Of a stretch of DNA of 64,000 bases, positions 13,291 through 38,451 are shown piece after piece. Both the position numbers and the translations under genes were made by a program. Origin of the DNA: Candidatus Woesearchaeota archaeon (lineage in GTDB: Archaea > Nanobdellota > Nanobdellia > Woesearchaeales > DSVV01); contig JACRKF010000033.1 of NCBI GenBank assembly GCA_016219865.1, positions 1,960 through 65,959 of the forward strand. The letters run 5' to 3'. Within the stretch, counting starts at the first letter, position 1, and every line of letters starts with the position of its first letter. Below the pieces are notes generated by a model. That model searched no databases. It was not told where the DNA came from and saw only the letters and a list, made by a program, of their open reading frames with translations.

Positions 13291-14442
13291 ATGGATAAGA
13301 AAGCAATCAAATTAACAAGCGAGGCATTGATTGAAGCTGTATTGATTACAATTGTAATTATAGCATTTGCTTTCTACATTAGTTCATTAAGAGAAGACAC
13401 ATTAATTGAAAAGACAGCTATTATTAGAGAATTATCAATGCTTGCAAATACAGTGCAGGCAAGCCCTCAAGATGCGCTTGTAATATATAATAAAAACAAT
13501 CTCAACAAATATCATTTTTCATTTAAAGAGAATTATGTGCAGATTAAACAGCAGGATTATGCAACAGTATTATATCCTTATTACACAGATATGATGCTTT
13601 CAATGCTGCTGCTGGATATAGAAAAAAAAGATCAACTTGTATTCTCTAGTTTCAAAGATAGTTTTATAATTTCTCCTGAAACAGTTGTTGGCTTTTCTTC
13701 GCAAAGAGGAGATAGTTTCAATCCAGCTGCTGCATCAGGTGGCATAGTTATTCAAAACAATCAGCAAAAAGATCCGCAATTAGCAGCAAGCTTTGCTAAT
13801 TGTCCGCTTATAAAATCAACAGTTGCATTGCAGACAATTGTCTTAGATTCAGGTAAAGGAGATTATATTGCAATGCCTGATGAGACCCAAGAAGTATTTG
13901 TAAAAGATTTTGGCGTGCAGAATAAAGCTCTTGGTACAAGCGAGCATGAACTTACTATGAAAGCTGTTATTTTATTAGAGACAGCATTAAGATTAAAAGT
14001 TAAGAACACACTCCTCAAAAAAACAAGAACGCAGAATGAAGATGAAAGTTTTTCTTATTCTGAGAGGTTGCAAAGATTTGATGCAGATGACAATCTTGTA
14101 ATAAGCATCCGTATGTATCAGGCGCAAGAGACTGAGAATAAGATTACCTTATATATATTAGCAGGAAAAAATGAATTGCAGAATCAAAAGATTGCATGTT
14201 TATTGATGAACGAATTGCAAGAAAAGTTATCAGGATTAACGCATAAAATTGAGATACGTTATCTTGCAGAAACAGATGATAGTTATCCATTATTAGAAAA
14301 GAACAGCAAAGAAAATGATAATTTAGCTGTTTTATTAGAGCTAGGCAATATTAACAATAAAGATAATGCTTTGTACAGCCAATTAGATGCTGCTGTTGAT
14401 GCGATAGCTGCAGCAGTTGCTGCATATAACAATGATAGATAA
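13291..14442 (+). CDS. Hypothetical membrane-anchored protein (KKA-type N-terminus)
   Basis: Start reassigned from 13270 to the ATG at 13291, because 13271–13284 is the recurrent 14-nt upstream element. N-terminus MDKKAIKLTSEALIEAVLITIVIIAF (basic + TM). Confidence 0.5.
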   Translation: MDKKAIKLTSEALIEAVLITIVIIAFAFYISSLREDTLIEKTAIIRELSMLANTVQASPQDALVIYNKNNLNKYHFSFKENYVQIKQQDYATVLYPYYTDMMLSMLLLDIEKKDQLVFSSFKDSFIISPETVVGFSSQRGDSFNPAAASGGIVIQNNQQKDPQLAASFANCPLIKSTVALQTIVLDSGKGDYIAMPDETQEVFVKDFGVQNKALGTSEHELTMKAVILLETALRLKVKNTLLKKTRTQNEDESFSYSERLQRFDADDNLVISIRMYQAQETENKITLYILAGKNELQNQKIACLLMNELQEKLSGLTHKIEIRYLAETDDSYPLLEKNSKENDNLAVLLELGNINNKDNALYSQLDAAVDAIAAAVAAYNNDR

Positions 14443-14462
14443 GAATAATTAAAGATGAAAAG

Positions 14463-15089
14463 ATGAATAAAAGACAAATGAACCAAAAAATGAATATTTT
14501 TCATGAAAGAAAAGATAGAAAAAAAGCTTTTGCCTATTTTCAGATTATTTTTGCATTTTATAGGATATTTGTATTGATGTTGGTTGTCTTATCTATTGTT
14601 ATGATCACAAAATTATTTATTAAAGTAACATTTGACACGCAAAAAGCAGAGATGGAACTATTTAAAGAACAATTATTATACTCTAAAGATGGTATTTCGT
14701 TGTACGACAGGGAAACCCAGCTATTATCTCCTGGTGTTATTGATTATAATCTTTTAAAGAATAAAGCATTATTTGAAAGCAAATTATTGCAGGGATTTTA
14801 CTTTAAAGACAAACCTCTTATAGCAGCAAAGCTTGAATTTTCTCTTCCATCTAATGCTGATGAAACTAGTACGGATTATGAAGAATTTATTCCAATCTAT
14901 TATCATGAAGATTATTTTAAACAATTATCAGTGCTTGCAAATACAAAGTTTCATGGAGCAGGTGGAGCAAAGATGATCCAAAGAGAAACTCCTGTATTAA
15001 TTAAGAAAATAGTTGTAGAGAATAACATTGCAGTTGAAAAATATATTCCAGCAGATTTAACAATCACAATTGTCAGCTCAAATAGTTAA
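14463..15089 (+). CDS. Hypothetical membrane-anchored protein (KKA-type N-terminus)
   Basis: ...RKKAFAYFQIIFAFYRIFVLMLVVL TM after a basic stretch. Co-directional with its neighbours. Confidence 0.45.
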   Translation: MNKRQMNQKMNIFHERKDRKKAFAYFQIIFAFYRIFVLMLVVLSIVMITKLFIKVTFDTQKAEMELFKEQLLYSKDGISLYDRETQLLSPGVIDYNLLKNKALFESKLLQGFYFKDKPLIAAKLEFSLPSNADETSTDYEEFIPIYYHEDYFKQLSVLANTKFHGAGGAKMIQRETPVLIKKIVVENNIAVEKYIPADLTITIVSSNS

Positions 15090-15114
15090 TTAGAAAGATA
15101 ACAATAAAGAATAG

Positions 15115-15681
15115 ATGATACTTATGAAAAGGAAAAATAAAGAAATATTCTTTGCAAAAAGAATTTTTTGCAAAAAAGCTGCAACACCATCGCAGATATT
15201 AATAGACTTTTGGGCTGCGCTAATCATTGTATTGATTCTGGCAACATTCTTTTTTATTTTATATGTCTCTCAAGGCAATATGGGTGTTGTAATCAAAGCG
15301 CAAGCAGCTGAGTTCGAGACTAATGATGAATTGCTTTATCTTTTGCAGTCTCCTGTCGTTATTGGCAATAAATCAATGAGCTTTTCTGAAGCAATTGCAG
15401 TTTCAGTGCATAAAGATGATTTTGTTGAACTTGAAAAAGCATTTGATCAAATAGGAGTATCAATTAGATTCAATAACTGTATTGACATTACTCTTGAATA
15501 TTCTGGCAAGAAAAAATCAATTCCTGCTGTGAATAATTGTGAAAGATATGCTGAATATGAACACAACACTGAAAAGATCTACATAAGTAAAGCAGAACTG
15601 CCATCTTTAGATGGTGCAATTATCAGTGTTGCTTATTCAATCAGTAAGATAATCCCGGAATATAGATATGGAAATGAATAA
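15115..15681 (+). CDS. Hypothetical membrane-anchored protein (KKA-type N-terminus)
   Basis: ...CKKAATPSQILIDFWAALIIVLILATFFF; 188 aa. Confidence 0.45.
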   Translation: MILMKRKNKEIFFAKRIFCKKAATPSQILIDFWAALIIVLILATFFFILYVSQGNMGVVIKAQAAEFETNDELLYLLQSPVVIGNKSMSFSEAIAVSVHKDDFVELEKAFDQIGVSIRFNNCIDITLEYSGKKKSIPAVNNCERYAEYEHNTEKIYISKAELPSLDGAIISVAYSISKIIPEYRYGNE

Positions 15682-15683
15682 AC

Positions 15684-17864
15684 ATGAAAAAAATAAATAA
15701 AAAATCACAATTGTTTATGATATTGTTAGTTTTTGTTACATTGACGACTGTCATTTCTGTATTCTTAGTGCTTTCAGAGAAAAGAGCAGATGTTAAAAAT
15801 TATTTAGGAGAAGAAAGCATGAATCTTATTAGTGGATATCAAGAAGAGCAGAAATTACTGCATGCAATTCAATTGCAGGCAAGATTTGCATATTATCAAT
15901 CTGTTTACGATCTTGCATTAGCTGGAGGTGCATCAACTGAAGGAGCTGCTGCAAATAACTGCGGTAAATATCGTGGATTTGTAAATTATTACAATGATCC
16001 TGAGTTTCAGCAATGCTTGCCTTTGGATCCAGAGAAAGAATTAATTCTGCTGATGAACAAAGAGATGAAATTTACTGAAACAGGAATTAGTAACAGCGAA
16101 GTTACTTCTGTTTACAGCGCTGAGGTAAAAGATAATTCAGTTATTGGCAAAGCAAATGGCTCAATTGCATATACTTATGACACTGCAAATAAAGTATTAA
16201 ATCTTGGTTCAATTGAAATCAAACAATTATCTCCAGGAGAATACGCGCAATTGCATAATTATGGAACTGCTCCAGGCACTCAAGGAAATAGTGGCGTAAA
16301 AGAATATCCAGTATGCGATAAGACAGAAGATGTAATCATTGATCTTTCTCAAGGCAAAGAAAAGAAACTTGAAGAAATTGGCTTAGGAAAAATATGGGTG
16401 CCAGCGCAAGCATTATGTGGGGGAGAATTTCCAGTTTTTATAATGCTTCATGGTCATGATGCTAATCCTGCGCAGTATTATGTTGGAGAAAGTTCAAAGT
16501 CAAGAATTGATAGCAGTATTAAACAATTAATAGCTGATAAAAAAGTATATCCTGTAATCTTAGCTGCGCCGATTGGACGTGTAAATAAGATTAATGGTGA
16601 TTTAGTTGATCCATGGCCTGCTGACCAGTTTGATATTGCTGATTATATTGCAAAGATTAAAACTGTGTTGCAGCAGCAGAATAATAAACTAACTGCTGGA
16701 AAAGTTGGAATCATTGGGCATAGCGCAGCAAATTGTTATGCAGGTGGTTTAAGAACTGCTGTCAGCAAATATGATTTTTATTTTGTCGGTTCAGCTGATG
16801 GAACCTGCGGTTCAAAAGATGGCGCTGTTGGCAGCAATAATTATGCAAAAACAATCTCTCAAAGAATCAGCAATAAAGATGCAATTTATGTTTTGATGCA
16901 CAGAAATAGTGATTCAGGAGATAAATCATCTGAAACATTTATGGCGGAAAACAGTATTGATGACTCAGCAGATGCAATTGCAAAAGAGAATTATGTTTCT
17001 GTTGTAAAGAAAAATGATAAAGAATATTATCGATATTTGTTGGATCCGCAAAAATATGGACATATGGCAGTTCCAAAATTGATGACAATGGAAGTTTTGC
17101 AGCGATTCTTCACATTAGAAAAAGTTGGAGGATTTGCTCCTTATGCTGCCATATCTCAAGCAGCGCCTAATGGTTGTAAAAGAACAATATTTAATAGAGA
17201 TAGTGAATCAATTGGAACAGTTAATTGTGGTGCATTAAAAAATGCTGTAAGTTTTGCCGCCGAGCGCGAATATTATAAATCTGATCATGATTCTCAGAAA
17301 AGATATGCAACTGTTGAATTAGTTAATTTCATTGAGGATATTGGTTGTGTCTTAACTGCAAAATATGGTTCACAAGGGAAAATTGCTGTAGGACAAACAA
17401 GTTATGAATATGGCGGGAAATTATATCTTCATGGAGACAGCGGAAATGCGCATTCTTCGCATCAAAGTGGAAGAGATGCGGATATTGGATTGTTCTTCAG
17501 AAATGAGAAACAAGAATTGATAAGTAAACAAACTGCAATGGTTGATACAAAGACAAATATTGTAGATTCGCGTTTTGACTTGGACGCTAATTGGTTATTT
17601 GTAAAAGAGTTTGTTAAACATGATCTGGCAGATATCATTATTATTCATGGGGCATTAGAAGATGCGCTTATTGCTTATGCTGAACAACATAATGAGGACA
17701 AACAATTGATTGAAAAAGCAAAACAAATAATGGTTGGTGGATATGGGGAGTTAGGGTATGATCACAGACACCATTATCATATCAGGATTAAATGTCCGCA
17801 TGGAGATAATTTATGTGAAAAGAAATACAATAAATGTGATAATTATATTGCTCAGGCGAAATAA
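15684..17864 (+). CDS. Membrane-anchored multidomain protein with a C-terminal MepA-like (peptidase M74 / LAS-family) murein DD-endopeptidase domain and a central putative alpha/beta-hydrolase-like region
   Basis: C-terminus HGDSGNAHSSHQSGRDADIGLFF and DHRHHYHIRIKCPHGDNLCEKK closely match the MepA zinc-ligand blocks (GGHASHQTGLDVDI; HRAHMHVRLRCP..LEC). The central part has FIMLHGHD and IIGHSAAN, which is esterase-like. N-terminus is MKKINKKSQ + TM. Confidence 0.55.
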   Translation: MKKINKKSQLFMILLVFVTLTTVISVFLVLSEKRADVKNYLGEESMNLISGYQEEQKLLHAIQLQARFAYYQSVYDLALAGGASTEGAAANNCGKYRGFVNYYNDPEFQQCLPLDPEKELILLMNKEMKFTETGISNSEVTSVYSAEVKDNSVIGKANGSIAYTYDTANKVLNLGSIEIKQLSPGEYAQLHNYGTAPGTQGNSGVKEYPVCDKTEDVIIDLSQGKEKKLEEIGLGKIWVPAQALCGGEFPVFIMLHGHDANPAQYYVGESSKSRIDSSIKQLIADKKVYPVILAAPIGRVNKINGDLVDPWPADQFDIADYIAKIKTVLQQQNNKLTAGKVGIIGHSAANCYAGGLRTAVSKYDFYFVGSADGTCGSKDGAVGSNNYAKTISQRISNKDAIYVLMHRNSDSGDKSSETFMAENSIDDSADAIAKENYVSVVKKNDKEYYRYLLDPQKYGHMAVPKLMTMEVLQRFFTLEKVGGFAPYAAISQAAPNGCKRTIFNRDSESIGTVNCGALKNAVSFAAEREYYKSDHDSQKRYATVELVNFIEDIGCVLTAKYGSQGKIAVGQTSYEYGGKLYLHGDSGNAHSSHQSGRDADIGLFFRNEKQELISKQTAMVDTKTNIVDSRFDLDANWLFVKEFVKHDLADIIIIHGALEDALIAYAEQHNEDKQLIEKAKQIMVGGYGELGYDHRHHYHIRIKCPHGDNLCEKKYNKCDNYIAQAK

Positions 17865-17866
17865 AA

Positions 17867-18961
17867 ATGAAAAATAATCATCAAATAAAAAAAATAAGCA
17901 GGCATATGGTCTTAGTGTCAGCCATACTTTTATTTTCCATAGTTATATTTTTATCTCCTGTTGTTTCCGCAGCGCCGCAGTTATTGATCAGCATAGATAA
18001 TGAGAATAATCTTGAAGATTTCCAAGTGATTGCAGACAATGACTATTATGGCGGGAAATATTATCCTTTGCTTACTGAAGAATATGGGGAAGAAATACTG
18101 ATATCGCCTGAGAAGTTTCATTATAGAGTTATACTAGACAATATAGAAATTTCAAAACTAAATGAAAGATTTGCATTAGGATTCAGTCCTAAAACTGCAA
18201 CTATGGAAATCTTTGATGATAAGATATTTGATAATAATAAAGCAATCATCACTAAACAACTTTCATTCTGCAACAACAACAATATTTGTGAACCTTGTGA
18301 AGATTCTGAGTGCAATCTCATGGAATCTTCTTTGACATGCAATGATTGTAAGTCTGGCAGCGCAGATTTTATTTGTGATTTAGTTTATGATGGAATTTGT
18401 GATCCTGATTGCGAGAATAAAGACAAAGATTGCAGTAGTTGTAAAGAAAAAGCAAACGAAGAAGCAAATAATTGTTATGCTTATGCTGAAGAGACTGAAT
18501 GTCTTGAAGAATATAGCGGAGAAACTTGTTTCTTTGGCAAGAGCTGCGCTGAAGGTGATGGCATAGCAATAAAAAATACTTTGTGCTGCCCAAACAGTTA
18601 TTGCATAACTTCTTTTTTTTCAATGAATGAAAAAAAAGAAATTGAAAAGATAAAAGAAAAACAAGATGAAGAAAAAGAGATAAAATTCATGAACCAAGTT
18701 GCAACAAACCAACAGCAATCATTTACAATTTATTTAGTATTTATCATAATATTAATAATTACTATAATATTATTATCTATTTATTTCATTAGAAAAATGT
18801 ATAGGTCAAAGATGCTTGTTATAGAAATCCAGCGATTAAAGAACAGATACAGTTATGCCGAGATTAAAACTTATTTAGAAAAACAAGGATATAAAAAAGA
18901 AGATATTGATTTAGCAATACAGCAGCATTATTTGTATGATAAGAATGTTAAAAATCACTAA
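17867..18961 (+). CDS. Cys-rich surface protein with an N-terminal signal/TM and a C-terminal TM anchor plus cytoplasmic tail
   Basis: N-terminal hydrophobic segment. Dense Cys module CNDCKSGSADFICDLVYDGICDPDCENKDKDCSSC...CCPNSYC. C-terminal TM IYLVFIIILIITIILLSIYFI followed by a basic tail. Confidence 0.5.
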   Translation: MKNNHQIKKISRHMVLVSAILLFSIVIFLSPVVSAAPQLLISIDNENNLEDFQVIADNDYYGGKYYPLLTEEYGEEILISPEKFHYRVILDNIEISKLNERFALGFSPKTATMEIFDDKIFDNNKAIITKQLSFCNNNNICEPCEDSECNLMESSLTCNDCKSGSADFICDLVYDGICDPDCENKDKDCSSCKEKANEEANNCYAYAEETECLEEYSGETCFFGKSCAEGDGIAIKNTLCCPNSYCITSFFSMNEKKEIEKIKEKQDEEKEIKFMNQVATNQQQSFTIYLVFIIILIITIILLSIYFIRKMYRSKMLVIEIQRLKNRYSYAEIKTYLEKQGYKKEDIDLAIQQHYLYDKNVKNH

Positions 18962-19000
18962 TCGTGCTTTTTAACATTTCTTTGAAAAAGGATTGAAAAC

Positions 19001-22000
19001 ATGAACTATGGTTTCGGAGCAAAAACAAGAAAAGTATTGCAGTTTTATTTAGTTTACGCTTTATTCTTATTGTTGAGTGCTGCTTTTGTCACAGCAGACA
19101 ATATTAATTTTGCTATAATTACAGATACAAATGTTGGCATTGGGAGCATTGTATTAGCAGAACAAACTGATGCAGTTGTTAATTCAATTATTCATTCTCC
19201 GCAAAATATTGATTTTGTTATTCATCTTGGCAATATGGTAGCAGGAAGTTCTGCTGCAACAGCTGATGATGCTGAAAAGATGTGGAATGAATACAATCAG
19301 AAAGTTATAAAACAATTGCAGGATAAAAATATAGGACTGCTTTTAATTGCTAATAAACAAGATAAAGCAAATGCTGCATTAGAAAGTAATTATATCAATT
19401 TATTTAACTCTGCAACTCACGATTTTGTCTCTTCAGCAGCTGCAAAAGATAATTATGCATTTGTATACAAGAACAATCTTTTTATTGTTTTGCAGTATGA
19501 CAAAAATATTGACAAAAGCTGGTTAAAAGAACAGTTAGAAAATAATTATCAATCTGTTGACCATGTGTTTGTATTTTATCCAAACGAATTTGTTGCAATT
19601 GCAAAAGAAAAAACAACCTCCTTAGTCTGTAATAATTGCAATGACTTATTTTCTGCGCTTGATGCTTACAGCAATAAATTTGGCAACAAGGTAACATTAT
19701 TTACAGCATCATCTCAAGTTTATTACAAAGGAAATTACAAAGGATATGATATTGTCTCAGTTGGCGCAATTGACGAACCGCATACAATAATTGGAACTAA
19801 TGAACGGCAAAAAGCTGTGTATGCAGTTGTTAAAATAAATGATAAGGATACTGTTATTTATGGTGTTGAAGAGCAATTTGATCATTGGTTTTACGAATGC
19901 AGAAACCTGCCATTGATCCAGCCAGCAGGCTATGACAAATTTAAAGGAATGATTGCAGGATGCCAGCAGATAACAGGAGATAAAAAAACAAATGATATTA
20001 TCCAGTCACCCTGTATTATTCCTCCGCAATTTGAAGGATATGATCAATTTGCAAAAGCAAGAGGATTGATCGTTGAAAGTTTCAATGAAAAACATCCAGA
20101 ATATGATTCAATTATATTAGAAGCATCGCAAAGGTTTAACATGCCATTTGAATTGATTAAAGCAATTGTCATGGAAGAATCAGGTGGAAATCCTTTTCCA
20201 TCAAAACAATCTCTTGGTGGAACAACCTGCAATGAAAATGGATGTTTATGCAATCAACAAGGATTTTGTGGATTGATGGGAACAGGATTAAATTATGTTT
20301 GCTTAACTCCTTCTGAATGCAATAAACAAGCATTTATGGACGGAAACCCTCGTGACCAAATCTTTGCAGGAACCTCAATCCTCCGCAGAATAATAGACAA
20401 AAAACAATGCAAACTTGATAATAAGAATCTGCTTGATGATGTTAATAATCCTCAATATATCATGCATTTATTTGGCTGCTATGGAAAAGGTTCTGCTGAT
20501 AATAAAGAATATTGTGAAAGAGAAAATAAACCATGTGGTTATCCTGTTTTCCTCCGCAGAGCAATGCAAAAAAGTGCTAAACCTCTTGAAAAGATTACTC
20601 CTGCGGATATTGCTGCTGTAACTACAGATGCAAACGCAATAGTTCATAGTTACATAAAATATATTAAATTAAATCTCTGTAAAAATGGAGTCATCAATGA
20701 CCAAATAGCGCATCCAATTATTCAAAGTACTGCAGCGCAAAGCCAATCTGCATTAGCTAAAGTTGGAATTGCTCAAGGTGTTTCAACAGTCTATTATCTA
20801 ACACCTAACTTCAGAGTAAACATGGATAATGCATTCACAGATTATAAAACAATTAGAGAAGCAGCAACGCAATTAGTAACTGAAGTTAATGACTGCAGAA
20901 GTCGTGGCAATACTGTTGAGAATTGTTTTGCTATTAATATTAATAATCAAAAGTATAAAACGCTTGGAATTACAGTTGATAATCAATTATGCAAAGAAAG
21001 TCAGCTGGATAAATTCATCTATGATTCAATTGAGAATATGAAAACATGTTCAAGATTATCATTAAAAAAATGTCAGATGATTATCCCGCAGCAATATCCT
21101 GGAGAGGCAAAGCTTGATGAGAATGCAATTGCATTTGTTTTCTCATCTGTTGATGGCAAAACAATTCTTATTGAGGCATCTGTCAACAATATATTGCATA
21201 CTGCGGATAAAATAACTGGAAGCTTGGCATTATTTGAAGATTTTATAGCGCAGCCGGAGTTTAAAGATATGAAGAATGCAACAATTCTGCTGAAATATGA
21301 TAAATATCAATCTAAACACAATATATTATCATTTAATGATAATCATAATTTTGTTTCAAAAGACAAAATTATTCCTTTTGTTTTCAATCAGGATAATAAA
21401 TTAACTTTCTTTAGTGATAAGTTAGCGCAGCCATATTTTTCTTTTGCTGAAGCGCAGCAGCAGGAAATAGATGACATGCAAAAACTAAAAAAAGGTTTTA
21501 AGTTGTGCTATTTAAGCAAGAATACATTGTATGCAAAAGGTATGTTTGACACTTCTCCTGAAGATATTGCTTATTATGAGAATAATTTGCGTTATCCAAC
21601 AAAATTAAGAGCTCTTGTCTATAGATTTGCATTATTATTTGATGTTTCTCAGGCAATTCCTCATACAGCTATTGCAGCAGCTGACTTGCAGAAAGCAGAG
21701 AAAACTGTGCTTGTAAAGTTTGATAAACCAACTACTCCTGTTAAATATTATACATTATTTTTTTCTAACGAAAAAAATATATTGGAAAAACCTGCAAATG
21801 AGCTTAAAGATAAAGAAAATGTCCAGAAGATTATTCTTGATCCTAGCGCGGCAAAAACAGTAAGCGTCGCAGATTATTCTTTGCTTGGAGATGAAATAGT
21901 TATTGGCAAACTTTATTATAACATTCAGGAGAATATGTATTTCTTAGCAGTTGCAGTTGATAATGAATTAAAGCAATATTATTTTACTATTGCTGCAATG

Positions 22001-22480
22001 AGTGTTAATAATAAAGAACCGAATAATATTGATGCTGATCAAAAGCTAAATGTCATTGAAGGATTTTCAATTGATGATTTGCCTCCAGCATCGCCGGAAA
22101 TTGTTATTATTGAAGGTGCTTCTATTTCAGCAGCAGATATAAATCAAGAAGAGATCGAAAGCAATGTTGCATTAGCTGCGCCTCTTCAAGGAAGCATCGC
22201 AGTTGCTTGGGATAGTGTTGCAGATAATAGTAATCTTAATTATCTTCTTGCTGATTTAGATGGATATTTTGTTGTAATGCATGAGGATAAAGTTAATACT
22301 TCATTAAAGCTTACTAAAGATAATTGCAATACTGCAAATAATTGTCAATTTGTTTCTGCAGTATTGCCAGACAACAAAGATAGATTTGAAACAGTTTTTG
22401 CTGGATTAGATGATGCAAATAATTATATGGTTGTTGTTTATGCTGTTGATACTTCTGGAAATTATTTAGAAATTAAATAA
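19001..22480 (+). CDS. Large secreted protein (1159 aa) with a lytic-transglycosylase (SLT/lysozyme-like) domain
   Basis: N-terminal signal peptide. Residues ~370–470 read EASQRFNMPFELIKAIVMEESGGNP...GFCGLMGTG...DGNPRDQIFAGTSILRRI, which matches the family-1 LT motifs (catalytic E-S, G-L-M-[QG], downstream NP...I..G..IL) around a Cys-rich insertion. Confidence 0.5.
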   Translation: MNYGFGAKTRKVLQFYLVYALFLLLSAAFVTADNINFAIITDTNVGIGSIVLAEQTDAVVNSIIHSPQNIDFVIHLGNMVAGSSAATADDAEKMWNEYNQKVIKQLQDKNIGLLLIANKQDKANAALESNYINLFNSATHDFVSSAAAKDNYAFVYKNNLFIVLQYDKNIDKSWLKEQLENNYQSVDHVFVFYPNEFVAIAKEKTTSLVCNNCNDLFSALDAYSNKFGNKVTLFTASSQVYYKGNYKGYDIVSVGAIDEPHTIIGTNERQKAVYAVVKINDKDTVIYGVEEQFDHWFYECRNLPLIQPAGYDKFKGMIAGCQQITGDKKTNDIIQSPCIIPPQFEGYDQFAKARGLIVESFNEKHPEYDSIILEASQRFNMPFELIKAIVMEESGGNPFPSKQSLGGTTCNENGCLCNQQGFCGLMGTGLNYVCLTPSECNKQAFMDGNPRDQIFAGTSILRRIIDKKQCKLDNKNLLDDVNNPQYIMHLFGCYGKGSADNKEYCERENKPCGYPVFLRRAMQKSAKPLEKITPADIAAVTTDANAIVHSYIKYIKLNLCKNGVINDQIAHPIIQSTAAQSQSALAKVGIAQGVSTVYYLTPNFRVNMDNAFTDYKTIREAATQLVTEVNDCRSRGNTVENCFAININNQKYKTLGITVDNQLCKESQLDKFIYDSIENMKTCSRLSLKKCQMIIPQQYPGEAKLDENAIAFVFSSVDGKTILIEASVNNILHTADKITGSLALFEDFIAQPEFKDMKNATILLKYDKYQSKHNILSFNDNHNFVSKDKIIPFVFNQDNKLTFFSDKLAQPYFSFAEAQQQEIDDMQKLKKGFKLCYLSKNTLYAKGMFDTSPEDIAYYENNLRYPTKLRALVYRFALLFDVSQAIPHTAIAAADLQKAEKTVLVKFDKPTTPVKYYTLFFSNEKNILEKPANELKDKENVQKIILDPSAAKTVSVADYSLLGDEIVIGKLYYNIQENMYFLAVAVDNELKQYYFTIAAMSVNNKEPNNIDADQKLNVIEGFSIDDLPPASPEIVIIEGASISAADINQEEIESNVALAAPLQGSIAVAWDSVADNSNLNYLLADLDGYFVVMHEDKVNTSLKLTKDNCNTANNCQFVSAVLPDNKDRFETVFAGLDDANNYMVVVYAVDTSGNYLEIK

Positions 22481-22958
22481 TAACTGCAAATAATGTAATA
22501 ATTGTCATCAATATAAGCAAGATTATCTCTGCAAGCCCGCCTGTCTTCATAAACCCTTTAATTCTAACAGGTATTGGATACAAAAACATAATGCCTTGAT
22601 GATTTAGTGTATCTAAAACAAGATGTGAAAGATAGCCAATAAAAAACGGCACAATGTAAATAACTGGAATAACTAAAGATAATAAATATGAAAAGAGAAA
22701 TAATGCTAACAATGAATGAAAAAACCCTCTGTGTGTAAAGAGATATCCAACAATCTTAACATGCTTGCCAAGTTTTGAGGTAGTAATATCAATATCTGGA
22801 ATCATTGCAGCAAAGATAATAATCGCAATATACAACTGCGGCTGCAATTGAATATATTGAAAAGTCAGCAAACCAATAAGAAATGCAAATATAAGATGGG
22901 TTTTGAATAACATAAAAAAACATCGCTCCACTAGTTTTTTCTTCAGAGAAATTTCCAA
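22473..22958 (-). CDS. Membrane-bound metal-dependent hydrolase, DUF457/YdjM family
   Basis: Multi-TM protein with PDIDI...HRGFFHS...HLVLD His/Asp motifs typical of the YdjM family. Confidence 0.55.
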   Translation of the reverse strand: MEISLKKKLVERCFFMLFKTHLIFAFLIGLLTFQYIQLQPQLYIAIIIFAAMIPDIDITTSKLGKHVKIVGYLFTHRGFFHSLLALFLFSYLLSLVIPVIYIVPFFIGYLSHLVLDTLNHQGIMFLYPIPVRIKGFMKTGGLAEIILLILMTIITLFAVII

Positions 22959-23015
22959 AATTCAATTTCTGCAATTTTCATACCAAATCCCTTGTTGTCC
23001 GAATTGCCTCGCTAG

Positions 23016-23040
23016 GAGAATTTTGCAAAGCAAAATTCTC
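23016..23040. repeat. Palindrome GAGAATTTTGC-AAA-GCAAAATTCTC (copy b), just 3' of the RPA-like gene
   Basis: Identical 25-mer to copy a. Confidence 0.8.
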
Positions 23041-23047
23041 TTCAGAA

Positions 23048-30046: not shown

Positions 30047-30047
30047 T

Positions 30048-32836: not shown

Positions 32837-32837
32837 T

Positions 32838-35054
32838 TTATTCTATTTTAACGCACAATCTATCGATGCCTATATCAACAAAGCTTAGCATTTGATTTGT
32901 TGTGTAACTTATTGATTTTCCTGAGAAACCAATTGGTTTTCCATCTTTTAATATACAAACAAATATATTCTCAAATATTGGCAGATTATTGAATGAACCT
33001 GATTTTACTTCTGCATTATTTACATTTAATTGTAGTTTACCATCTGCATTAATTATTACATTTGATCCTTGAAAGAATGGATATGCTAGTTGTTGTTTGC
33101 AATTTGTTTGCTTTTTTATCTTTGTCATATCAAGATCATTTAAGTTAATTACTAAATGTATTGCTGAAGTTGTTTTATAATTTAAATCATAATTATATAG
33201 GTGAAGCAGATCTAAATGAATTGATTCAGGTTCAAGGATGTACAGTTCATTATTGTAATAATAATATGCGTACTGATTATAATCTATTGATGGTTCAAGT
33301 ATAGTTGATGGTGTATCAGTCATATCGCTAAAAAGCAATACTCTGCTGCCATCTTCATCTTCTTTGATAACCCTAAGATAATTATGAGCAACTGTTGAGA
33401 GTTCTTGATTTTCTTGATTATCTGTTGATCCTTGACAATCAGATTTATCATATGCATTTCCAGAGTTACATATATTTGATGATTTTCGTTGAGCTTCAAC
33501 TTCTTCTGGAGTTTTATAATAACATTTTCCATAATCGATTACAGTTTTAAAGTTGTTTCCTGTTGTTGTATCTTGTGTTGCTTCTTGTATTAAAGAATAT
33601 TCGCCAAAATTACTTGCATCAGCTGCTTCATCGCATTTTTTGATTGTATCCGCAATAGTATCAGGTTCCATCTTCTTATTTGTTGCATCAATTTTATGAT
33701 TGTTAATCTGCAATAGAATTCCAAAATCCAATGTAATCTCCTGTGATGATTTATCATTTAGATTAATCTTTTTATTTTTTGTTTCTCTTTCTGATAGGAT
33801 TATTGATTTTGCATTTTCAGCTTGTTTGTATTGATCAGAACTTCTCTCAGCTATGTCTGACTTAGGAATGACATATAATTCATCATTAAATAACTCTAAG
33901 TCTGCTGCATTAGTTGAGATTAAATCAAAATGTGTTTTGGGTTCATTATTATCTATGAATAACAACTCTTTCTGCTGTCCAAGACGAACAATCCTCAAAT
34001 AATATTGTTGAACTGTTTCTGGACATTTTCCTGTTTCAATTCTCCTAGTCATACCGTCTGCGCCAACAAATTCCTTTTTCAGATTGCCATTCTTATTAAG
34101 ATTAGAGATATCATCGCATGACTCAATAAGATTTTCTTTCACCTCAATAAATGGTGTATCAAGATTTATCTTTTCACCAAGGTTTGTTTCATCAAGATTG
34201 CCTTGCGCATCAAAATAATATCTGTAAATTGCTTTTTGTTGCGCTATTGCTGGAAGAAAATCAATGCGTTGATTATTATAAGCTCCTTGTTTTAACAGTT
34301 TAAAATAATCAGTTGGATTTGTCTTAGCTATTGTTTCTTCTCTGCAAGCATCATATATTTTTTGGAGTTCTGCAAAGTTCTTATCGATTATAGGCATGAA
34401 TCCTGGAGAAGTGCAGCACATTGGATCATTAACATTGCAGTTATTTGAGCAGAATGTTATTTCATCATTCAATTTTACAATCTTTAATGGATAAACTTTA
34501 TCAAAACTTTTTATATAAACGCAGTCATAAGTCTTTGTGCTGTCATACTGTTTTATGTCAGATACATATTTCTGCATAAACAATGGATCCATTTTTGAAA
34601 AGAATTGATATCTTGTCTGTGTTGCTTTTTTTGTAATTGGTTTGCATTCAATTATTTCATTGCATAATCCAATAGCGCTTGATTTGCATAAACAAAGACA
34701 GTCGCTTGTCTTGCATTCTTGTGGAAGTTCTTTATCAAACATTCTGATATTCTTGCCTTCTTTATTATCGCCTTTTACTTCTTCAACAAATTCGCATAAT
34801 TCTGGAGTTGTATCGATTATCGCATAATCACTGTCTAATTTAAACGGTCTTTCTATTGGTTTATTATCAGCCATAATATCCAGAGTTGCTAACAGGCTAT
34901 GAAAACTTTCTTTTGCAGCTTGTTCAGTTGAATCATGAAAAAAGAGTTGATAGATTCCAACTGCAAGAATTAAAAGAACAATGAAAGCTGCTGCTACTAA
35001 CACAGCTTCTGCTACTGTTTCTAATGTCATCATCTCAGCTTTTTTATGGCGCAT
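32838..35054 (-). CDS. Large Cys-rich extracellular protein with a pilin-like N-terminus
   Basis: MRHKKAEMMTLETVAEAVLVAAAFIVLLILAVG (KKAE + TM), then 700 aa rich in Cys with no recognisable catalytic motif. Confidence 0.5.
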   Translation of the reverse strand: MRHKKAEMMTLETVAEAVLVAAAFIVLLILAVGIYQLFFHDSTEQAAKESFHSLLATLDIMADNKPIERPFKLDSDYAIIDTTPELCEFVEEVKGDNKEGKNIRMFDKELPQECKTSDCLCLCKSSAIGLCNEIIECKPITKKATQTRYQFFSKMDPLFMQKYVSDIKQYDSTKTYDCVYIKSFDKVYPLKIVKLNDEITFCSNNCNVNDPMCCTSPGFMPIIDKNFAELQKIYDACREETIAKTNPTDYFKLLKQGAYNNQRIDFLPAIAQQKAIYRYYFDAQGNLDETNLGEKINLDTPFIEVKENLIESCDDISNLNKNGNLKKEFVGADGMTRRIETGKCPETVQQYYLRIVRLGQQKELLFIDNNEPKTHFDLISTNAADLELFNDELYVIPKSDIAERSSDQYKQAENAKSIILSERETKNKKINLNDKSSQEITLDFGILLQINNHKIDATNKKMEPDTIADTIKKCDEAADASNFGEYSLIQEATQDTTTGNNFKTVIDYGKCYYKTPEEVEAQRKSSNICNSGNAYDKSDCQGSTDNQENQELSTVAHNYLRVIKEDEDGSRVLLFSDMTDTPSTILEPSIDYNQYAYYYYNNELYILEPESIHLDLLHLYNYDLNYKTTSAIHLVINLNDLDMTKIKKQTNCKQQLAYPFFQGSNVIINADGKLQLNVNNAEVKSGSFNNLPIFENIFVCILKDGKPIGFSGKSISYTTNQMLSFVDIGIDRLCVKIE

Positions 35055-35310
35055 TTAGATCACAATCTTGCTCTTGTCCAGATTCATCTTTGTACTTGCC
35101 ATTATCTGCTAATCCATCACCGTCGCTATCATCAGGAGAATTTGCTGGAACTAAGCAATCTTGCTGCGAAGTTGTTTTTTCCTTTATATTTGTCAGTGAT
35201 TTCATAAAATCCTTAACAGAACCTGAAGAAATCATAATCAGTAAGAATCCAAACACTAATGAAACAATCATTATTACAAGCCAAAATGGCATTTCTGCTT
35301 TTTTATCCAT
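35044..35310 (-). CDS. Small pilin-like protein with a C-terminal Asp-rich calcium-binding-like motif
   Basis: Real start taken as MDKKAEMPFWLVIMIVSLVF (track start 35358 is a TTG). C-terminus DDSDGDGLADNGKYKDESGQEQDCD resembles a TSP3-type DxDxDG repeat. Confidence 0.45.
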   Translation of the reverse strand: MDKKAEMPFWLVIMIVSLVFGFLLIMISSGSVKDFMKSLTNIKEKTTSQQDCLVPANSPDDSDGDGLADNGKYKDESGQEQDCDLNAP

Positions 35311-35365
35311 AAAAAACATCCTCCCTTTAGTAGTCATTACTCCTATGTTAAAAAACAATAAAAAA

Positions 35366-35379
35366 TGAACGAAGTGAAT
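35366..35379 (+). promoter_or_regulatory. 14-nt element TGAACGAAGTGAAT inside the 9-bp inverted repeat CAATAAAAA...TTTTTATTG, with no downstream plus-strand gene
   Basis: 27-mer nearly identical to the 5701–5727 copy. Lies inverted ~56 nt upstream of the minus-strand gene starting at 35310. Confidence 0.35.
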
Positions 35380-35391
35380 TTTTATTGTTTT

Positions 35392-35856
35392 TTAGTTATT
35401 TAAACAACATACTTCTCCTTTATTGTCGCAATTAGTATATAATACATAATTAATTTTTCCATCTGTTGATTTGCAGCTTTCTTTTTTTATGCAGCTTCCT
35501 TGTTGTGATTCACAAGCAAGATAGCAGCATACTTGTTCACTTGCTGAGTTATCTGTAGTTGTGCTATCAGAACCATCTGCAGATTTTAACGGATTTGTTT
35601 TTCCGCAGGATAATGCTAATGTTTGTCCTTTTTGATCACTGCATTCTGTTGAAGACATGCATTTGCCTTGTTTTGACTCGCAATCATTAAGGCTGTATCG
35701 AAATAGAGATGATTGTTTGCCAAATATAAATAACAATACAAAAAGAACTACTAATGCAAGTATTACAATCACAACTGTATTTATTGCTAAATCTGCTTTC
35801 TTATTTTTTTGGTTCATAGTTTCAACTCTTTTTTTACTATTGTATTTATTAATCAC
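35392..35856 (-). CDS. Small Cys-rich secreted protein with a duplicated CES-QG-C module
   Basis: N-terminal ...MNQKNKKADLAINTVVIVILALVVLFVL. Two copies of the module CESKQGKC...C...VCC / CESQQGSC...C...VCC. Confidence 0.45.
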   Translation of the reverse strand: MINKYNSKKRVETMNQKNKKADLAINTVVIVILALVVLFVLLFIFGKQSSLFRYSLNDCESKQGKCMSSTECSDQKGQTLALSCGKTNPLKSADGSDSTTTDNSASEQVCCYLACESQQGSCIKKESCKSTDGKINYVLYTNCDNKGEVCCLNN

Positions 35857-35901
35857 TTGTTTATTCTCATAGCTGCATTTTCTTTTTCAGCAATTACTGA
35901 T

Positions 35902-36462
35902 TCATTTTTTCTCTTCTTGTATTTTTGCCATATAATAAACTGCATCTAAATAAATAGAGCTATCTTTCGCATTTTCAATCAAGTAGTTTGCTTTCTCTTC
36001 TGCATGAACAAAGTCTTTATTTTTAAAATATAGTTGGAGCAGCACATGTGTTATTTCTTCCTTTAAATTATCATCATCTTCAATAATTAATAACTTCTCT
36101 CTTATTTCAATAACTTTTTCAATATTTAGATTATTTTCTCTGTCATATAACTGCAAGAATCTTTCTAATATCTCTTTATTTTTAACTGCATTATTAGATT
36201 GTGCAATGAATTCATAACACACAACATAAGCGCTATCTATATCTGAACTTTTTTTTTCTTGTCCAGAAAGGTAAGTTCTGCAATCAATTTCCAATATATC
36301 AACCTTTTGCTGTTGATTAAGCAGTTTTTGTTCTTCTGTAAACTTTATGAATGATATTTTATCAATAAATTCTTTACCCATGCTGTATAATGCTTTAGGG
36401 AAGACAGTAATAAATATCAGAAAGAATATTGCAACCAATAAAGCAACCAATTTCCAATTCAT
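35902..36462 (-). CDS. Pilin-like N-terminus membrane protein
   Basis: Probable start MNWKLVALLVAIFFLIFITVF preceded by KNKKKAD (track start 36507). C-terminal helical region. Confidence 0.4.
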   Translation of the reverse strand: MNWKLVALLVAIFFLIFITVFPKALYSMGKEFIDKISFIKFTEEQKLLNQQQKVDILEIDCRTYLSGQEKKSSDIDSAYVVCYEFIAQSNNAVKNKEILERFLQLYDRENNLNIEKVIEIREKLLIIEDDDNLKEEITHVLLQLYFKNKDFVHAEEKANYLIENAKDSSIYLDAVYYMAKIQEEKK

Positions 36463-36481
36463 ATCCGCTTTTTTTTTATTT

Positions 36482-36613
36482 TTAGAAAAGATTTGCAATA
36501 AATTCACCTAATTTTCCTTTTGAAAGATATATTAAAGCTATGATTACAACTAGCATGATTAATGCGAAAATCATCATGACTATCCTAAATTCCATCTCTG
36601 CTTCTTTTTTCAT
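36482..36613 (-). CDS. 43-aa single-TM micro-protein (not in the ORF track)
   Basis: Manual translation gives MKKEAEMEFRIVMMIFALIMLVVIIALIYLSKGKLGEFIANLF. Preceded by TGAGGAGATTTTTTATTATG. Confidence 0.4.
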   Translation of the reverse strand: MKKEAEMEFRIVMMIFALIMLVVIIALIYLSKGKLGEFIANLF

Positions 36614-36627
36614 AATAAAAAATCTCC

Positions 36628-37527
36628 TCATTTCTTATTTTGTTCTTCTATTTTCAACTTTGTTTGTTGTTCTGCAGGAAGTTCATTGCAGTTTAAACCT
36701 TGCAATGCTTGTTCTGAATAAGGCCATAATACTGTTGCAGCGCTCCAGTCAGCAGCTTTGTCGTTTCCTGCTGCATAACCTATTGCCCCGCCAGCAATTG
36801 TGCCAAGCAATGCATATCCTGTTGCTGCAAAAACACCAACACCAGGAATTAAGATTGTTGATGCGCCAACAACAGTGCCTGCCCCTATGCCAGCCGGAGT
36901 AGACCACATTTTATTGACATAACCTTTTTTTGCATATAGCAATAGTACTGCATAGTTTCCTTTTGTAATTATACTATCTTCTGTGCTTTGCTGAGTTTTA
37001 ATAGTTTGTGTTTCTTCAGCTGTTGTATATGGAGAAATATATTTCTTATAATTTTGTTTGCCTAAAAAAGGCGGAATAGGATTTGATTCAAGAAATTGAA
37101 GAAAACCTTTAATCTCTATATTTGCAGCAGAGCCTTCAAAAGAAACCAATGAGCAAACAACGCAATAATTCTTTTCTTCATTAAACAAAACATCAAACAG
37201 ATCTTTTTTGCCCTCACCAAATTTAAACCAGCAATATGCCATTTGATTTGCTAACTTCTTCTGAATAAGAGTTGGATCTTTTTCTGCAATAACTATTTTC
37301 TGTGTTGGACAATCTAATCCTGTGCCAGCTATATCTTCTTGTTTGAATTGAATGCCTTTTATTTTTGTTTGTGACTGAATATCAACTGACTGTCTGCATG
37401 ATTCAATTGATTTAAATTCCTTTTGTTTTTGATGAACTGGAATCAGCCATAGCAATAATACTATTAAAGTAACGATTATTATAGCTATACTCGCCATTGC
37501 ATTAAACTCATTTGCTTTTTTATTCAT
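36628..37527 (-). CDS. Pilin-like surface protein, paralogue of 37555..38322
   Basis: Start MNKKANEFNAMASIAIIIVTLIV (track start 37536 is the ATG embedded in the SD-like GGAGCGATG). Shares the DCP...M..CW.KFGE...Y.NVCV.C block with its upstream neighbour. Gly-rich C-terminal TM region. Confidence 0.5.
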   Translation of the reverse strand: MNKKANEFNAMASIAIIIVTLIVLLLWLIPVHQKQKEFKSIESCRQSVDIQSQTKIKGIQFKQEDIAGTGLDCPTQKIVIAEKDPTLIQKKLANQMAYCWFKFGEGKKDLFDVLFNEEKNYCVVCSLVSFEGSAANIEIKGFLQFLESNPIPPFLGKQNYKKYISPYTTAEETQTIKTQQSTEDSIITKGNYAVLLLYAKKGYVNKMWSTPAGIGAGTVVGASTILIPGVGVFAATGYALLGTIAGGAIGYAAGNDKAADWSAATVLWPYSEQALQGLNCNELPAEQQTKLKIEEQNKK

Positions 37528-37554
37528 AAAAAACATCGCTCCGCTCGTTTCTTA

Positions 37555-38322
37555 TCAACCATACATTACCTCACATCTGAGCATATTCTGATTATCTAAC
37601 AGTTGTTCTTCATCAAGTATTGAGAGACGAAATTCATCATCATCAGTGTTTGAAACAGGAGTTGGCTTATAATCCACAATATTATGATAAATTAGATAGT
37701 ATGTTTTTCCAGCTGCAATTTGTGATGAATAGAACCAAAATAGATCCAACTGACCATTCTTAGTGAAGTAAGAGTAGTAATTTTGATCGCTAAAAGGCAG
37801 AGTTGCTTTTGATAAATAAGTTGTAAACGCAGTTCCTAATTCAATTGGTTGTATAGCTTGTGTGCTATCAATCTGAAATTGCGCGCAAAATACACATACA
37901 TTTTTGTAGCTTGCTTTATTTCTATCAAATACACTTCCGCCTGCTTCTCCAAAGTTTTTCCAGCAGATTCTCATTCTTTCTGCTAACACAGGATAAACTA
38001 CTTGTGAGTTTAATGCTTTATATGAATCAACAATTGTCTTTCTATTGCCGTCTGCTATAGCTATTGGTGTTTTTTTCTGATCTATTTCAAGATGATCTCC
38101 ATAGAAATTAATATATGTTCTTGGGCAATCAATTGGAACAGGAGATGAATCACCTGATATTCCAATTTTCGTTGCTTTATGCACTGCTGCAGTTGCTGCG
38201 CATTTTTCATCTTTTTCCTTTGAAATTAATTTTGCTAGCAATGGAGCTTCTATTGAGAGAAATATTATTAAAGAAACAACTAATATAATTATAGCATTAA
38301 TTCTGGAAATACCTCTTTTCAT
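37555..38322 (-). CDS. Pilin-like surface protein, paralogue of 36628..37527
   Basis: MKRGISRINAIIILVVSLIIFL (K-R-G followed by a hydrophobic stretch, resembling a class III signal). Shared DCPRTY...RICWKNFGEAGG...YKNVCVFC block. Confidence 0.5.
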   Translation of the reverse strand: MKRGISRINAIIILVVSLIIFLSIEAPLLAKLISKEKDEKCAATAAVHKATKIGISGDSSPVPIDCPRTYINFYGDHLEIDQKKTPIAIADGNRKTIVDSYKALNSQVVYPVLAERMRICWKNFGEAGGSVFDRNKASYKNVCVFCAQFQIDSTQAIQPIELGTAFTTYLSKATLPFSDQNYYSYFTKNGQLDLFWFYSSQIAAGKTYYLIYHNIVDYKPTPVSNTDDDEFRLSILDEEQLLDNQNMLRCEVMYG

Positions 38323-38349
38323 TATAAAAACTCCTCCAAGTCGTTTTTA

Positions 38350-38451
38350 TTATAAACGCAATAGTCTTAAAATACCATAAACTATAGTAATTAAAATAAT
38401 TAATACTGCCATATATATAATTATTCTAACTAATGATGCTTTCTTATTCAT
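38350..38451 (-). CDS. 33-aa single-TM micro-protein (not in the ORF track)
   Basis: Manual translation gives MNKKASLVRIIIYMAVLIILITIVYGILRLLRL. Preceded by the 14-nt element (TGAACGAAGTGAGT) + TTTTTTATG. Confidence 0.35.
   Translation of the reverse strand: MNKKASLVRIIIYMAVLIILITIVYGILRLLRL

Follow-up and report, generated by a model that had tools for sequence, protein, structure and literature searches.

Archaeal pilins that are processed by the peptidases PibD or FlaK, such as UpsA/B and AapA/B of Sulfolobus and PilA1-6 of Haloferax, are encoded by many paralogues per genome and carry a short basic leader ahead of a ~20-residue hydrophobic helix. Their class III signals obey a simple rule, Gly, Ala or Ser at position -1 and a charged residue at position -2; characterised sites are KA↓IS, RA↓LS, RA↓VS, RA↓QI and KG↓QV, where the arrow marks the junction (PMC4371748). 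We analysed a 64,000-nucleotide stretch of contig JACRKF010000033.1 from the metagenome-assembled genome of a tiny groundwater archaeon, a Candidatus Woesearchaeota (assembly GCA_016219865.1, positions 1,960 to 65,959), hereafter the window, in which twelve proteins begin with leaders resembling these. A preliminary description of the window had proposed a class III pilus-like system presenting wall-degrading enzymes, with a KKA↓ junction departing from the usual [KR]G↓. As in the known archaeal systems, relatives of this locus encode, together with the pilins, a secretion ATPase and an A24 peptidase that resembles FlaK.

Other described systems resemble the locus in part. The Epd pili of Methanococcus maripaludis (the Tad-like, EppA-dependent 'system 1') share with it a multi-gene operon, many minor pilins and a very small headless major pilin, as well as an ATPase akin to CpaF, a frequent Gln at +1 across the clade and a Glu at +5 in one pilin family (f3). 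They differ in having two platform genes where a single long gene occupies the platform position here, and hydrolase-bearing subunits are undescribed for Epd. The modular pilins PilB and PilC of Streptococcus sanguinis are built of a pilin module, a linker and a functional module, with many modules found per scaffold. However, the survey that described them was bacterial (IPR012902) and its modules were mostly adhesive with one peptidase type (PMC8179133), whereas the proteins studied here are archaeal and carry at least eight classes of murein hydrolase. Class III signals also occur on archaeal non-pilin, solute-binding proteins (preprint 10.64898/2026.04.22.720090). The corresponding Sulfolobus bindosome likewise involves non-pilin cargo, and its genes can lie away from assembly genes; here the cargo consists of hydrolases and unknown heads encoded within the pilin operon. 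Type IV filament (TFF) systems have been described in DPANN archaea, in that preprint and in Makarova 2016. Finally, peptidoglycan hydrolases (PGHs), including large extracellular lytic transglycosylases that act on murein, are known from Woese-, Pace- and Nanoarchaeota, and have been read as a sign of bacterial partners or prey (PMC8204110, PMC9723730, PMC12352652). The enzymes described below belong to the same clade and enzyme classes, with the same inferred bacterial-wall target, but have class III signals and lie in a TFF operon.

Prepilin-like N-termini in two gene clusters

All twelve N-termini quoted in the preliminary description were confirmed. They start co-directional, tightly packed open reading frames (ORFs) of two clusters (Table 1). 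Cluster 1 comprises four junction-bearing genes on the + strand (13291-17864). Cluster 2 comprises eight genes on the - strand, from 38451 down to 32838, including tiny ORFs of 33 and 49 amino acids (aa). The window was scanned in six frames for [KR][KR][AGS] followed, at most 8 residues on, by a 15-residue stretch with a mean Kyte-Doolittle hydropathy of at least 2.2. This gave 10 matches, all 10 inside the two clusters; the scan missed two of the twelve proteins, an ORF with a GTG start and a K-E-A variant. The background frequency of [KR][KR][AGS] is 0.33% of residues in the proteins of the window. Of the 19 window proteins with an N-terminal hydrophobic segment, 10 have the motif at most 12 residues ahead of it (binomial p ~6e-10). 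The junction is present in 12/12 cluster proteins as compared to 0/7 of the other N-terminally hydrophobic proteins of the window (Fisher p = 2e-5).

The leaders of the twelve proteins have about 4-22 residues and are rich in Lys, Arg and Asn. Position -2 is Lys or Arg in 11 and Glu in 1, position -1 is Ala in 10, Gly in 1 and Ser in 1, and all twelve fit the class III rule. The helices that follow, of about 20 residues, have Kyte-Doolittle means of 2.7-3.9. Gln, which EppA requires at +1 in Epd pilins, occupies this position in only 1/12, and Asp, Glu or Asn in 6/12. Classical Sec signals cleaved by signal peptidase I were considered for the twelve and rejected, because no AXA site follows their hydrophobic regions of 20+ residues, whereas neighbouring genes have genuine AXA signals. 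These other signals of the window comprise AXA sites (17867, 19001, 25348), a lipobox LQGC (49384-50556) and plain anchors.

Related loci were collected from Woese-, Pace- and Nanoarchaeota, with one genome scanned per species and a seed alignment of 5 sequences of ANCH, a 302-aa protein of cluster 2 that is the best conserved gene of the locus. The resulting 57 loci were taken with 10-kb flanks, and their ORFs were called and then clustered by BLASTP into families (f3, f12 and so on). L059 and L060, from a relative with 44% identity, were fetched around cluster 1 only. The related loci contain 737 ORFs with a hydrophobic N-terminus, of which 464 have the junction; shuffled leaders give 245 ± 10, about 21 standard deviations fewer. 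The consensus of these 464 proteins has Asn at -4 (48%), Lys or Arg at -3 (91%) and at -2, and Gly (61%), Ala (33%) or Ser (4%) at -1. The preferences at -4 and -3 arose free of the search rule. The hydrophobic 15-mer begins -2 to +9 residues from the site. The commonest residue at +1 is Gln, with 23% clade-wide and 37% in the subclade of the window, in which Ala is preferred at -1 (53%).

Comparison of orthologues shows that the residue at -1 interchanges only among Gly, Ala and Ser. Between the window and L059/L060, the corresponding junctions are KKA↓IKLTSE and KKG↓FELTVF, KKA↓FAYFQ and KKG↓MFLFFQ, KKA↓ATPSQ and KKG↓ATPVQ, and KKS↓QLFMI and KKA↓GVQVF. ANCH orthologues with 27-35% identity have KKA↓, KKG↓ or KRG↓. 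Few close relatives of ANCH were found by a word-seeded search, whereas an exhaustive profile search retrieved 3065 cluster representatives at the 50% identity level (E <= 1e-3). Among the best 144 of these, 117 have a [KR][GAS] junction, with Ala (44%), Gly (37%) or Ser (17%) at -1. The f3 family has Gly at -1 in 115/117 members (98%) and Glu at +5 in 116/117 (99%), two residues that are classical hallmarks of type IV pilins. The Ala and Glu of the window f3 align with these positions with one extra residue between them, which places the Glu at +6; the other proteins of the window have no fixed Glu.

Because the published rule allows Ala at -1 and orthologues exchange only Gly, Ala and Ser, KKA↓ is, judged by sequence, a canonical archaeal class III site and no new type. 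The contrary view of the preliminary description is refuted by the KA↓ and RA↓ sites of characterised pilins (PMC4371748) and by KKG↓ at the same positions in relatives. Ala at -1 is best described as a local preference inside a clade-wide N-K-K-[G/A/S] site. This leader appears specific to the clade and, with the lack of any Pfam or NCBIfam N-terminal model match and of annotation for ANCH, f1, f3, f12 and further families, distinguishes these proteins from known archaeal pilins.

An operon with putative assembly machinery in related lineages

In the related loci outside the subclade of the window, the junction-bearing genes usually form part of one operon (for example in L047, L049, L053 and L055). 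It starts with genes for a PRC-barrel protein, 2-3 small membrane proteins and two coiled-coil proteins, followed by an ATPase of ~760 aa and a polytopic protein of ~720 aa. Then come about 8-12 junction-bearing proteins in the order f7 (~52 aa), f1, ANCH, f3, f5, f18, f1, f1. A second polytopic protein, of 281 aa, is followed by HIT, EF1-beta, RPA, YdjM and RadA. The same order was obtained for L061, for which independent gene calls and precomputed Pfam assignments were used.

The ATPase matches T2SSE above threshold (49.9 bits), and among proteins of solved structure it is closest to A. fulgidus GspE2 (2OAP), CpaF and FlaI. The 281-aa protein matches Peptidase_A24 (35.2 bits). Its alignment to FlaK (3S0X) keeps the stretches QD..SREI and GGD.K, which we take to be the catalytic-Asp motifs of FlaK; as FlaK and no EppA sequence was used for this comparison, it does not tell an EppA-type from a FlaK-type enzyme. 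From its position, the ~720-aa polytopic protein would be the platform. Of the 48 loci outside the subclade of the window, 22 have the ATPase, 32 the platform-position protein and 20 the peptidase. When only loci with at least 8 kb of flank were counted, these figures became 21/34, 28/34 and 19/33, respectively.

The clusters of the window can be superimposed on such an operon. In L003 and L004, a single operon contains, in this order, the ATPase, the platform gene, ANCH, f56 (55 aa), f57, f42, f58, f59, f3, f22, f60, f12, RPA and YdjM. Cluster 2 reads 33 aa, ANCH, ANCH, 49 aa (related to f56/f7), 201, 141, 94 and 738 aa (with an f59-related N-terminus). Cluster 1 reads f3, f22, 188 aa and f12, then two Sec-type proteins, then YdjM and RPA. 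Because cluster 2 followed by cluster 1 gives the order of the L003/L004 operon, the two islands are, as far as gene order and homology tell, what became of a single ancestral pilin operon after its proximal half (cluster 2) and its distal half (cluster 1) had been separated and inverted.

The subclade of the window comprises 9 other loci plus L059/L060. In the 9 loci, genes for a giant Cys-rich surface protein and four further junction-bearing proteins precede a duplicated ANCH. Here the ATPase, platform and peptidase genes lie within 10 kb of none of the 9 loci. Therefore, the link of the window's lineage to the machinery rests on orthology with other lineages, and the subclade must either encode this machinery elsewhere or lack it.

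Murein hydrolase modules on pilin-like scaffolds

The f3 and f12 proteins of the window (383 and 726 aa) exceed their orthologues (~115-150 and ~250 aa, respectively), and the surplus corresponds to an amidase-like module in f3 and a Peptidase_M74 module in f12, whereas the N-terminal parts align with the short orthologues over their full length. The N-terminal part of the window f12 matches f12 of L009 and L006. Its C-terminus (residues 509-715) matches Peptidase_M74, the family of MepA-type murein endopeptidases (PF03411, E = 1.2e-17, 64.8 bits for a cutoff of 25). Alignment to E. coli MepA (1TZP) shows that HSSHQSGRDAD and HHYH are kept; these stretches presumably correspond to the metal-binding motifs H-x6-D and H-x-H of the LAS group. 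The f12 + M74 architecture is also found in a 742-aa protein of L059/L060.

The window f3 starts with its leader and a hydrophobic helix that contains the conserved Glu, has a ~135-aa pilin module and ends in an Amidase_3-like module. Its residues 8-128 align with the full length of the 115-150-aa f3 proteins from TFF operons. NCBI names the protein an amidase; its Amidase_3 score of 24.2 bits lies below the Pfam cutoff of 27 bits. The module was therefore mapped via f3 of L015, which scores 69.6 bits and was aligned to the solved amidases 7RAG and 4RN7. At residues ~185-275, the window protein has DSGKGD and SIR in place of GHGG and SIH, and two relatives (P0008 and P0009) have the same substitutions. 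The zinc ligands of Amidase_3 are His/Glu/His. Because Lys and Arg replace the two histidines of GHGG and SIH, the amidase fold of the window f3 is probably non-catalytic, and the pseudo-enzyme possibly serves as a peptidoglycan-binding head.

Three scaffolds, f3, f12 and f1, repeatedly bear PGH modules, as do modular pilins their functional modules. Besides Amidase_3 on the L015 f3, we found Muramidase on an f3-like protein of L009 (134.9 bits), NlpC/P60 at the f12 position of L005 (50.1 bits), VanY on a 612-aa protein of L015 (29.9 bits) and a weak VanY/M15 match on f12 of L014. The f1 scaffold carries SLT in L016, L034 and L047 (79.1, 74.0 and 57.4 bits), a 3D domain in L028 (31.4 bits) and Glucosaminidase in L023 (73.6 bits), and SLT is recorded at the f1 position of L061 (precomputed Pfam). 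The SLT modules keep the E-S and GLMQ motifs of their family. By sequence search among the loci, such fusions are present in at least 22 of 58 loci, and in several of these, such as L045, L047, L048 and L061, the operon encodes the ATPase and the A24 peptidase as well.

Operons of bacterial type IV pili (T4P) and of type II and type IV secretion systems often carry a dedicated lytic transglycosylase, for example VirB1 or BfpH. By this precedent, the hydrolases would remodel the archaeon's own envelope and clear a path for the apparatus instead of attacking bacteria. We regard this as highly improbable. Eight murein-specific enzyme classes are exchanged on the scaffolds, which resembles diversification against varied targets. 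Moreover, murein is not known in these archaea, and their hydrolases are generally read as directed against bacteria (PMC8204110, PMC9723730, PMC12352652).

We conclude that the twelve proteins are very probably prepilin-like subunits with archaeal class III signals. With somewhat less confidence, we consider it likely that they belong to a TFF system conserved in Woese-, Pace- and Nanoarchaeota that displays murein-targeting modules. Apart from the novelty ascribed to KKA↓, the core of the preliminary description is strongly supported by genome comparison: in many related genomes the orthologues share their operon with genes for a T2SSE ATPase and an A24 peptidase, and hydrolases are fused to pilin modules.

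Several observations weigh against this interpretation, to which the substitutions in the amidase-like module of f3 must be added. No protein of the window has a pilin-related match (Pfam, E <= 0.01; NCBIfam, E <= 10), nor does any Pfam pilin N-terminal model match the L001 orthologues at E <= 10. A genome with 31% GC favours Lys-rich N-termini in any case. AlphaFold models were poor, with a predicted local distance difference test (pLDDT) score of 39 for full-length f3 (3-sequence alignment) and of 51 for its pilin module (118-sequence alignment). They showed a helix-helix-beta-strand topology at low confidence, and the transmembrane (TM) helix alone was confident in the model of the pilin module; with such scores a fold search was not justified. 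The Gly-rich hydrophobic C-terminal region of ANCH would impede its extraction into a filament. The platform-position protein has no T2SSF match in a Pfam scan at E <= 10 (best E = 5). Finally, as the preliminary description had noted, the window lacks genes for the assembly ATPase, the platform and the prepilin peptidase (Pfam; tblastn of 75 proteins of relatives, best E 0.027), to which the lack of nearby machinery in the 9 subclade loci may be joined.

The lack of a pilin model match, the Lys-rich genome and the uninformative structure predictions would all suit plain uncleaved signal anchors, in which the K-K pair reflects the positive-inside rule in an AT-rich genome and some genes encode bitopic accessories of the PilN/PilO type. 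So would the 19% of ANCH relatives that lack the junction and have acidic leaders. However, mere anchors would not explain why the small residue at -1 varies only among Gly, Ala and Ser over orthologues 30-45% identical, why Asn at -4 and Lys at -3 are conserved though outside the search rule, or why the motif count lies so far above that of shuffled leaders. The motif is also absent from the other anchored or secreted proteins of the window, and the A24 peptidase, with its QD..SREI and GGD.K stretches, is encoded within the operon of relatives. Plain anchoring is therefore very unlikely.

The lack of linked ATPase and platform genes in the subclade, the extra C-terminal hydrophobic segments of ANCH and the very large subunits (726 and 738 aa) bear on a different alternative. 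The proteins could be genuine class III substrates of an A24 peptidase that, once cleaved, remain membrane-anchored surface proteins or form a short pseudopilus, as proposed for the Sulfolobus sugar-binding proteins; such signals are indeed widespread on archaeal non-pilin proteins. In most other lineages, however, the same families lie between the ATPase/platform genes and the peptidase gene, helix-only subunits of 33-55 aa, typical of Flp/EpdE, are conserved in the operon, and f3 keeps Gly at -1 and Glu at +5. We consider this bindosome-like arrangement unlikely, though less so than plain anchors.

If the twelve proteins are subunits of a TFF, the following mechanism may be proposed. It builds on what was observed, namely the motif, the orthology, the synteny with ATPase and peptidase genes in relatives and the hydrolase domains, and it infers cleavage, polymerisation, the tip location, the bacterial target and machinery encoded elsewhere in this genome. 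During Sec insertion, the Lys-rich leader would keep the N-terminus cytoplasmic. Cleavage after the small residue of N-K-K-[A/G/S] by a FlaK/PibD-like A24 aspartic peptidase would follow, and a CpaF/TadA-like ATPase together with the polytopic membrane protein would polymerise the mature subunits via their hydrophobic N-terminal helices. Tiny subunits of 33-55 aa would be the likely bulk of the filament. Low-copy 'modular' subunits would bear functional heads, shown on the filament or at its tip. In this genome, these heads would be the M74 murein DD-endopeptidase of f12, the degenerate, probably peptidoglycan-binding amidase fold of f3 and the 580-aa unknown part of the 738-aa subunit. With them the archaeon would bind the peptidoglycan of a bacterium, whether partner or prey, and cut it locally, and the adjacent Sec-secreted proteins would act alongside.

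A more specific proposal is a dedicated TFF by which the ultrasmall Woese- and Pacearchaeota would dock onto the walls of bacterial hosts or prey and breach them, with interchangeable murein-hydrolase 'warheads' (SLT, 3D, glucosaminidase, muramidase, NlpC/P60, VanY, M74 and amidase) on three scaffolds. We put its chances at somewhat below even. Such a pilus-borne anti-bacterial device would be without described counterpart. The words 'pili', 'pilus' and 'pilin' are absent from the texts of PMC8204110, PMC9723730 and PMC12352652, and 'peptidoglycan' and 'hydrolase' from that of preprint 10.64898/2026.04.22.720090. The passages of Makarova 2016 that were examined, where these words were not searched, draw no link between pilins and hydrolases. 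In Saccharibacteria, episymbionts with reduced genomes from the other prokaryotic domain, T4P drive attachment to the host, and hydrolase-pilin fusions were not met in the parts of this literature that were seen (PMC9894109, PMC11623550). Targeted full-text searches of a limited literature nowhere joined archaeal pilins and PGHs, which is not proof of novelty.

Few DPANN archaea are as abundant in groundwater and sediments as Woese- and Pacearchaeota, and murein hydrolases have been the chief sign that some of them live on bacteria. Class III signals on hydrolases, together with a conserved ATPase/peptidase operon, would provide a concrete and testable mechanism of delivery. They may also explain the missing Sec or Tat signal of most archaeal PGHs, as such a signal is recognised in just 32% of them (PMC8204110, PMC9723730, PMC12352652). 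The 'modular pilin' principle would thereby extend from bacteria to archaea, with enzymatic cargo, and a role would be assigned to several large unannotated families, among them ANCH with its more than 3000 representatives at 50% identity.

Other genes of the clusters and of the window

Table 1. Genes of the two clusters and their neighbours (window coordinates; the arrow marks the junction or signal cleavage site)
Feature	Position	Strand	Length	N-terminal site	Remarks
Winged-helix/helix-turn-helix (HTH) protein	12749..13273	+	174 aa		stop overlaps the upstream ORF start of f3
f3 pilin-like protein	13291..14442	+	383 aa	MDKKA↓IKLTSE	MBI5393003.1
f22 pilin-like protein	14463..15089	+	208 aa	RKKA↓FAYFQ	
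Pilin-like protein in f60 position	15115..15681	+	188 aa	CKKA↓ATPSQ	
f12 modular pilin-like protein	15684..17864	+	726 aa	NKKS↓QLFMI	
Cys-rich exported protein	17867..18961	+	364 aa	VSA↓AP (Sec)	C-terminal TM anchor
Large exported protein	19001..22480	+	1159 aa	VTA↓DN (Sec)	directly 3′ of pilin genes
YdjM and RPA genes	22473..24109	-			right-hand neighbours of pilin operon in relatives; synteny anchor
Large pilin-like protein	32838..35054	-	738 aa	MRHKKA↓EMMTLE	
Small pilin-like protein	35044..35358	-	about 88 aa	MDKKA↓EMPFW	length counted from this N-terminus; 94 in the cluster order
Cys-rich small pilin-like protein	35392..35856	-	141 aa	MNQKNKKA↓DLAIN	length counted from this N-terminus
Pilin-like protein	35902..36507	-	201-aa ORF	KKKA↓DMNWK	
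Tiny pilin-like protein	36482..36631	-	49 aa	MKKEA↓EMEFR	related to ~52-aa f7/f56 family
ANCH protein	36628..37536	-	302 aa	MNKKA↓NEFNA	MBI5393029.1, HZA96_04110
ANCH-family paralogue	37555..38322	-	255 aa	MKRG↓ISRIN	paralogue of 302-aa ANCH, family 0
Tiny pilin-like protein	38350..38451	-	33 aa	MNKKA↓SLVRI	helix only; first gene of cluster 2

In cluster 1, f22 has 10 orthologues in the related loci, each immediately 3′ of f3. The 188-aa protein has no homologue among the 57 loci; its orthologue is known from L059. No cluster 2 protein was recognised by Pfam or NCBIfam. The 33-aa protein has a 41-aa counterpart in L002 (E = 4e-13), and junction-bearing ORFs of 35-47 aa sit before the ANCH gene in many loci. 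The 49-aa protein is a candidate for the major, Flp/EpdE-like subunit. The 201-aa ORF has no homologue among the related loci, whereas the 141-aa protein has 41 relatives there, of ~80-150 aa. The first 160 aa of the 738-aa protein resemble the f59 pilin of L003 (E = 5.7e-7); its C-terminal ~580 aa have no known domain and no Pfam match, and this extension is a possible adhesin.

The ANCH family has no Pfam match. Residues ~210-260 of ANCH form a conserved Gly-rich hydrophobic C-terminal stretch (GIGAGTVVGASTILIPGVGVFAATGYALLGTIAGGAIGYAAG), and there are four invariant Cys, which is odd for a pilin. The stretch is possibly a second membrane-embedded hairpin, and ANCH may be a base or anchor component.

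The window is archaeal, as it encodes Nre, RPA, SecY and an archaeal ribosomal protein cluster. A horizontal-transfer island was unsupported: the G+C content is 0.27-0.36 over the whole window, stays flat at 0.29-0.35 in the region concerned and reveals no compositional island. Cluster 1 is flanked by the HTH protein, a possible regulator, and by an N-terminally anchored S8 subtilase of 1239 aa (8881-12600, - strand), possibly a co-functioning protease; both are kept at equivalent positions in the relative L059/L060. The 364-aa protein belongs to the same operon as cluster 1 and lacks the class III motif. In the 1159-aa protein, inspection by eye revealed MEESGGNP...GLMG...NPRDQIFAGTSIL, with E-S, GLM and NP..I.AG in the order of GH23 lytic transglycosylases. 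Neither Pfam nor a sequence search of the PDB gave a match, and hhalign against SLT modules gave E = 0.006 with a probability of 6%. On this weak evidence, the protein is possibly a GH23/SLT-like enzyme and may count among the 'large murein transglycosylases' known from the clade. A 1428-aa protein is syntenic with it in L059. A 331-aa protein rich in Asn, Lys and Ser and anchored by a TM segment at its C-terminus is encoded between the clusters (25348-26343, - strand). The type of its signal is ambiguous, as the start MIKSKA↓LLKIGFILVIVLSIVLLSSLAKA↓EDLES agrees with the class III rule and equally with a classical AXA site (AKA↓ED).

Further observations were made in the related loci. The family f25 (L001 390-5882; L005, L009, L014, L015, L029, L035, L046) consists of Cys-rich surface proteins of 1000-2187 aa that have a TM segment at the C-terminus and a tail rich in Lys and Pro. 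It heads the operons of the subclade, at the site of the ATPase/platform genes in other lineages, and is absent within the 64 kb of the window. Proteins of 510-585 aa encoded 5′ of f25 were considered as the missing ATPase and rejected, with no match to other locus proteins including the ATPase, platform and peptidase families; their sequences resemble further large surface proteins. The ATPase has ~1250 aa instead of ~760 in L003 (3788-7609), L004 and L032, and RadA ~820 instead of ~330 in L003 (16725-19190) and L038, which suggests inteins. In L061 (1568-4468), a 966-aa protein with the class III-like start MNKKRG↓IFVFILIIL and no Pfam domain on record is encoded between the ATPase and platform genes. 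Conserved ORFs of 33-60 aa in the operon (f21 at L049 8948-9112; f24 and f58 in many loci), such as MAELTIGQLIKLILGILVVV, are hydrophobic at the N-terminus and lack a basic leader; their products may be small membrane subunits or else pilin-like peptides that have no leader. Finally, L007, L009, L014, L029 and L050 are labelled 'uncultured Methanosarcinales archaeon' or 'Paceibacterota bacterium' in GenBank, yet contain the Woese/Pacearchaeota pilin families, L014 also with RPA at its usual place; these organism labels are probably wrong.

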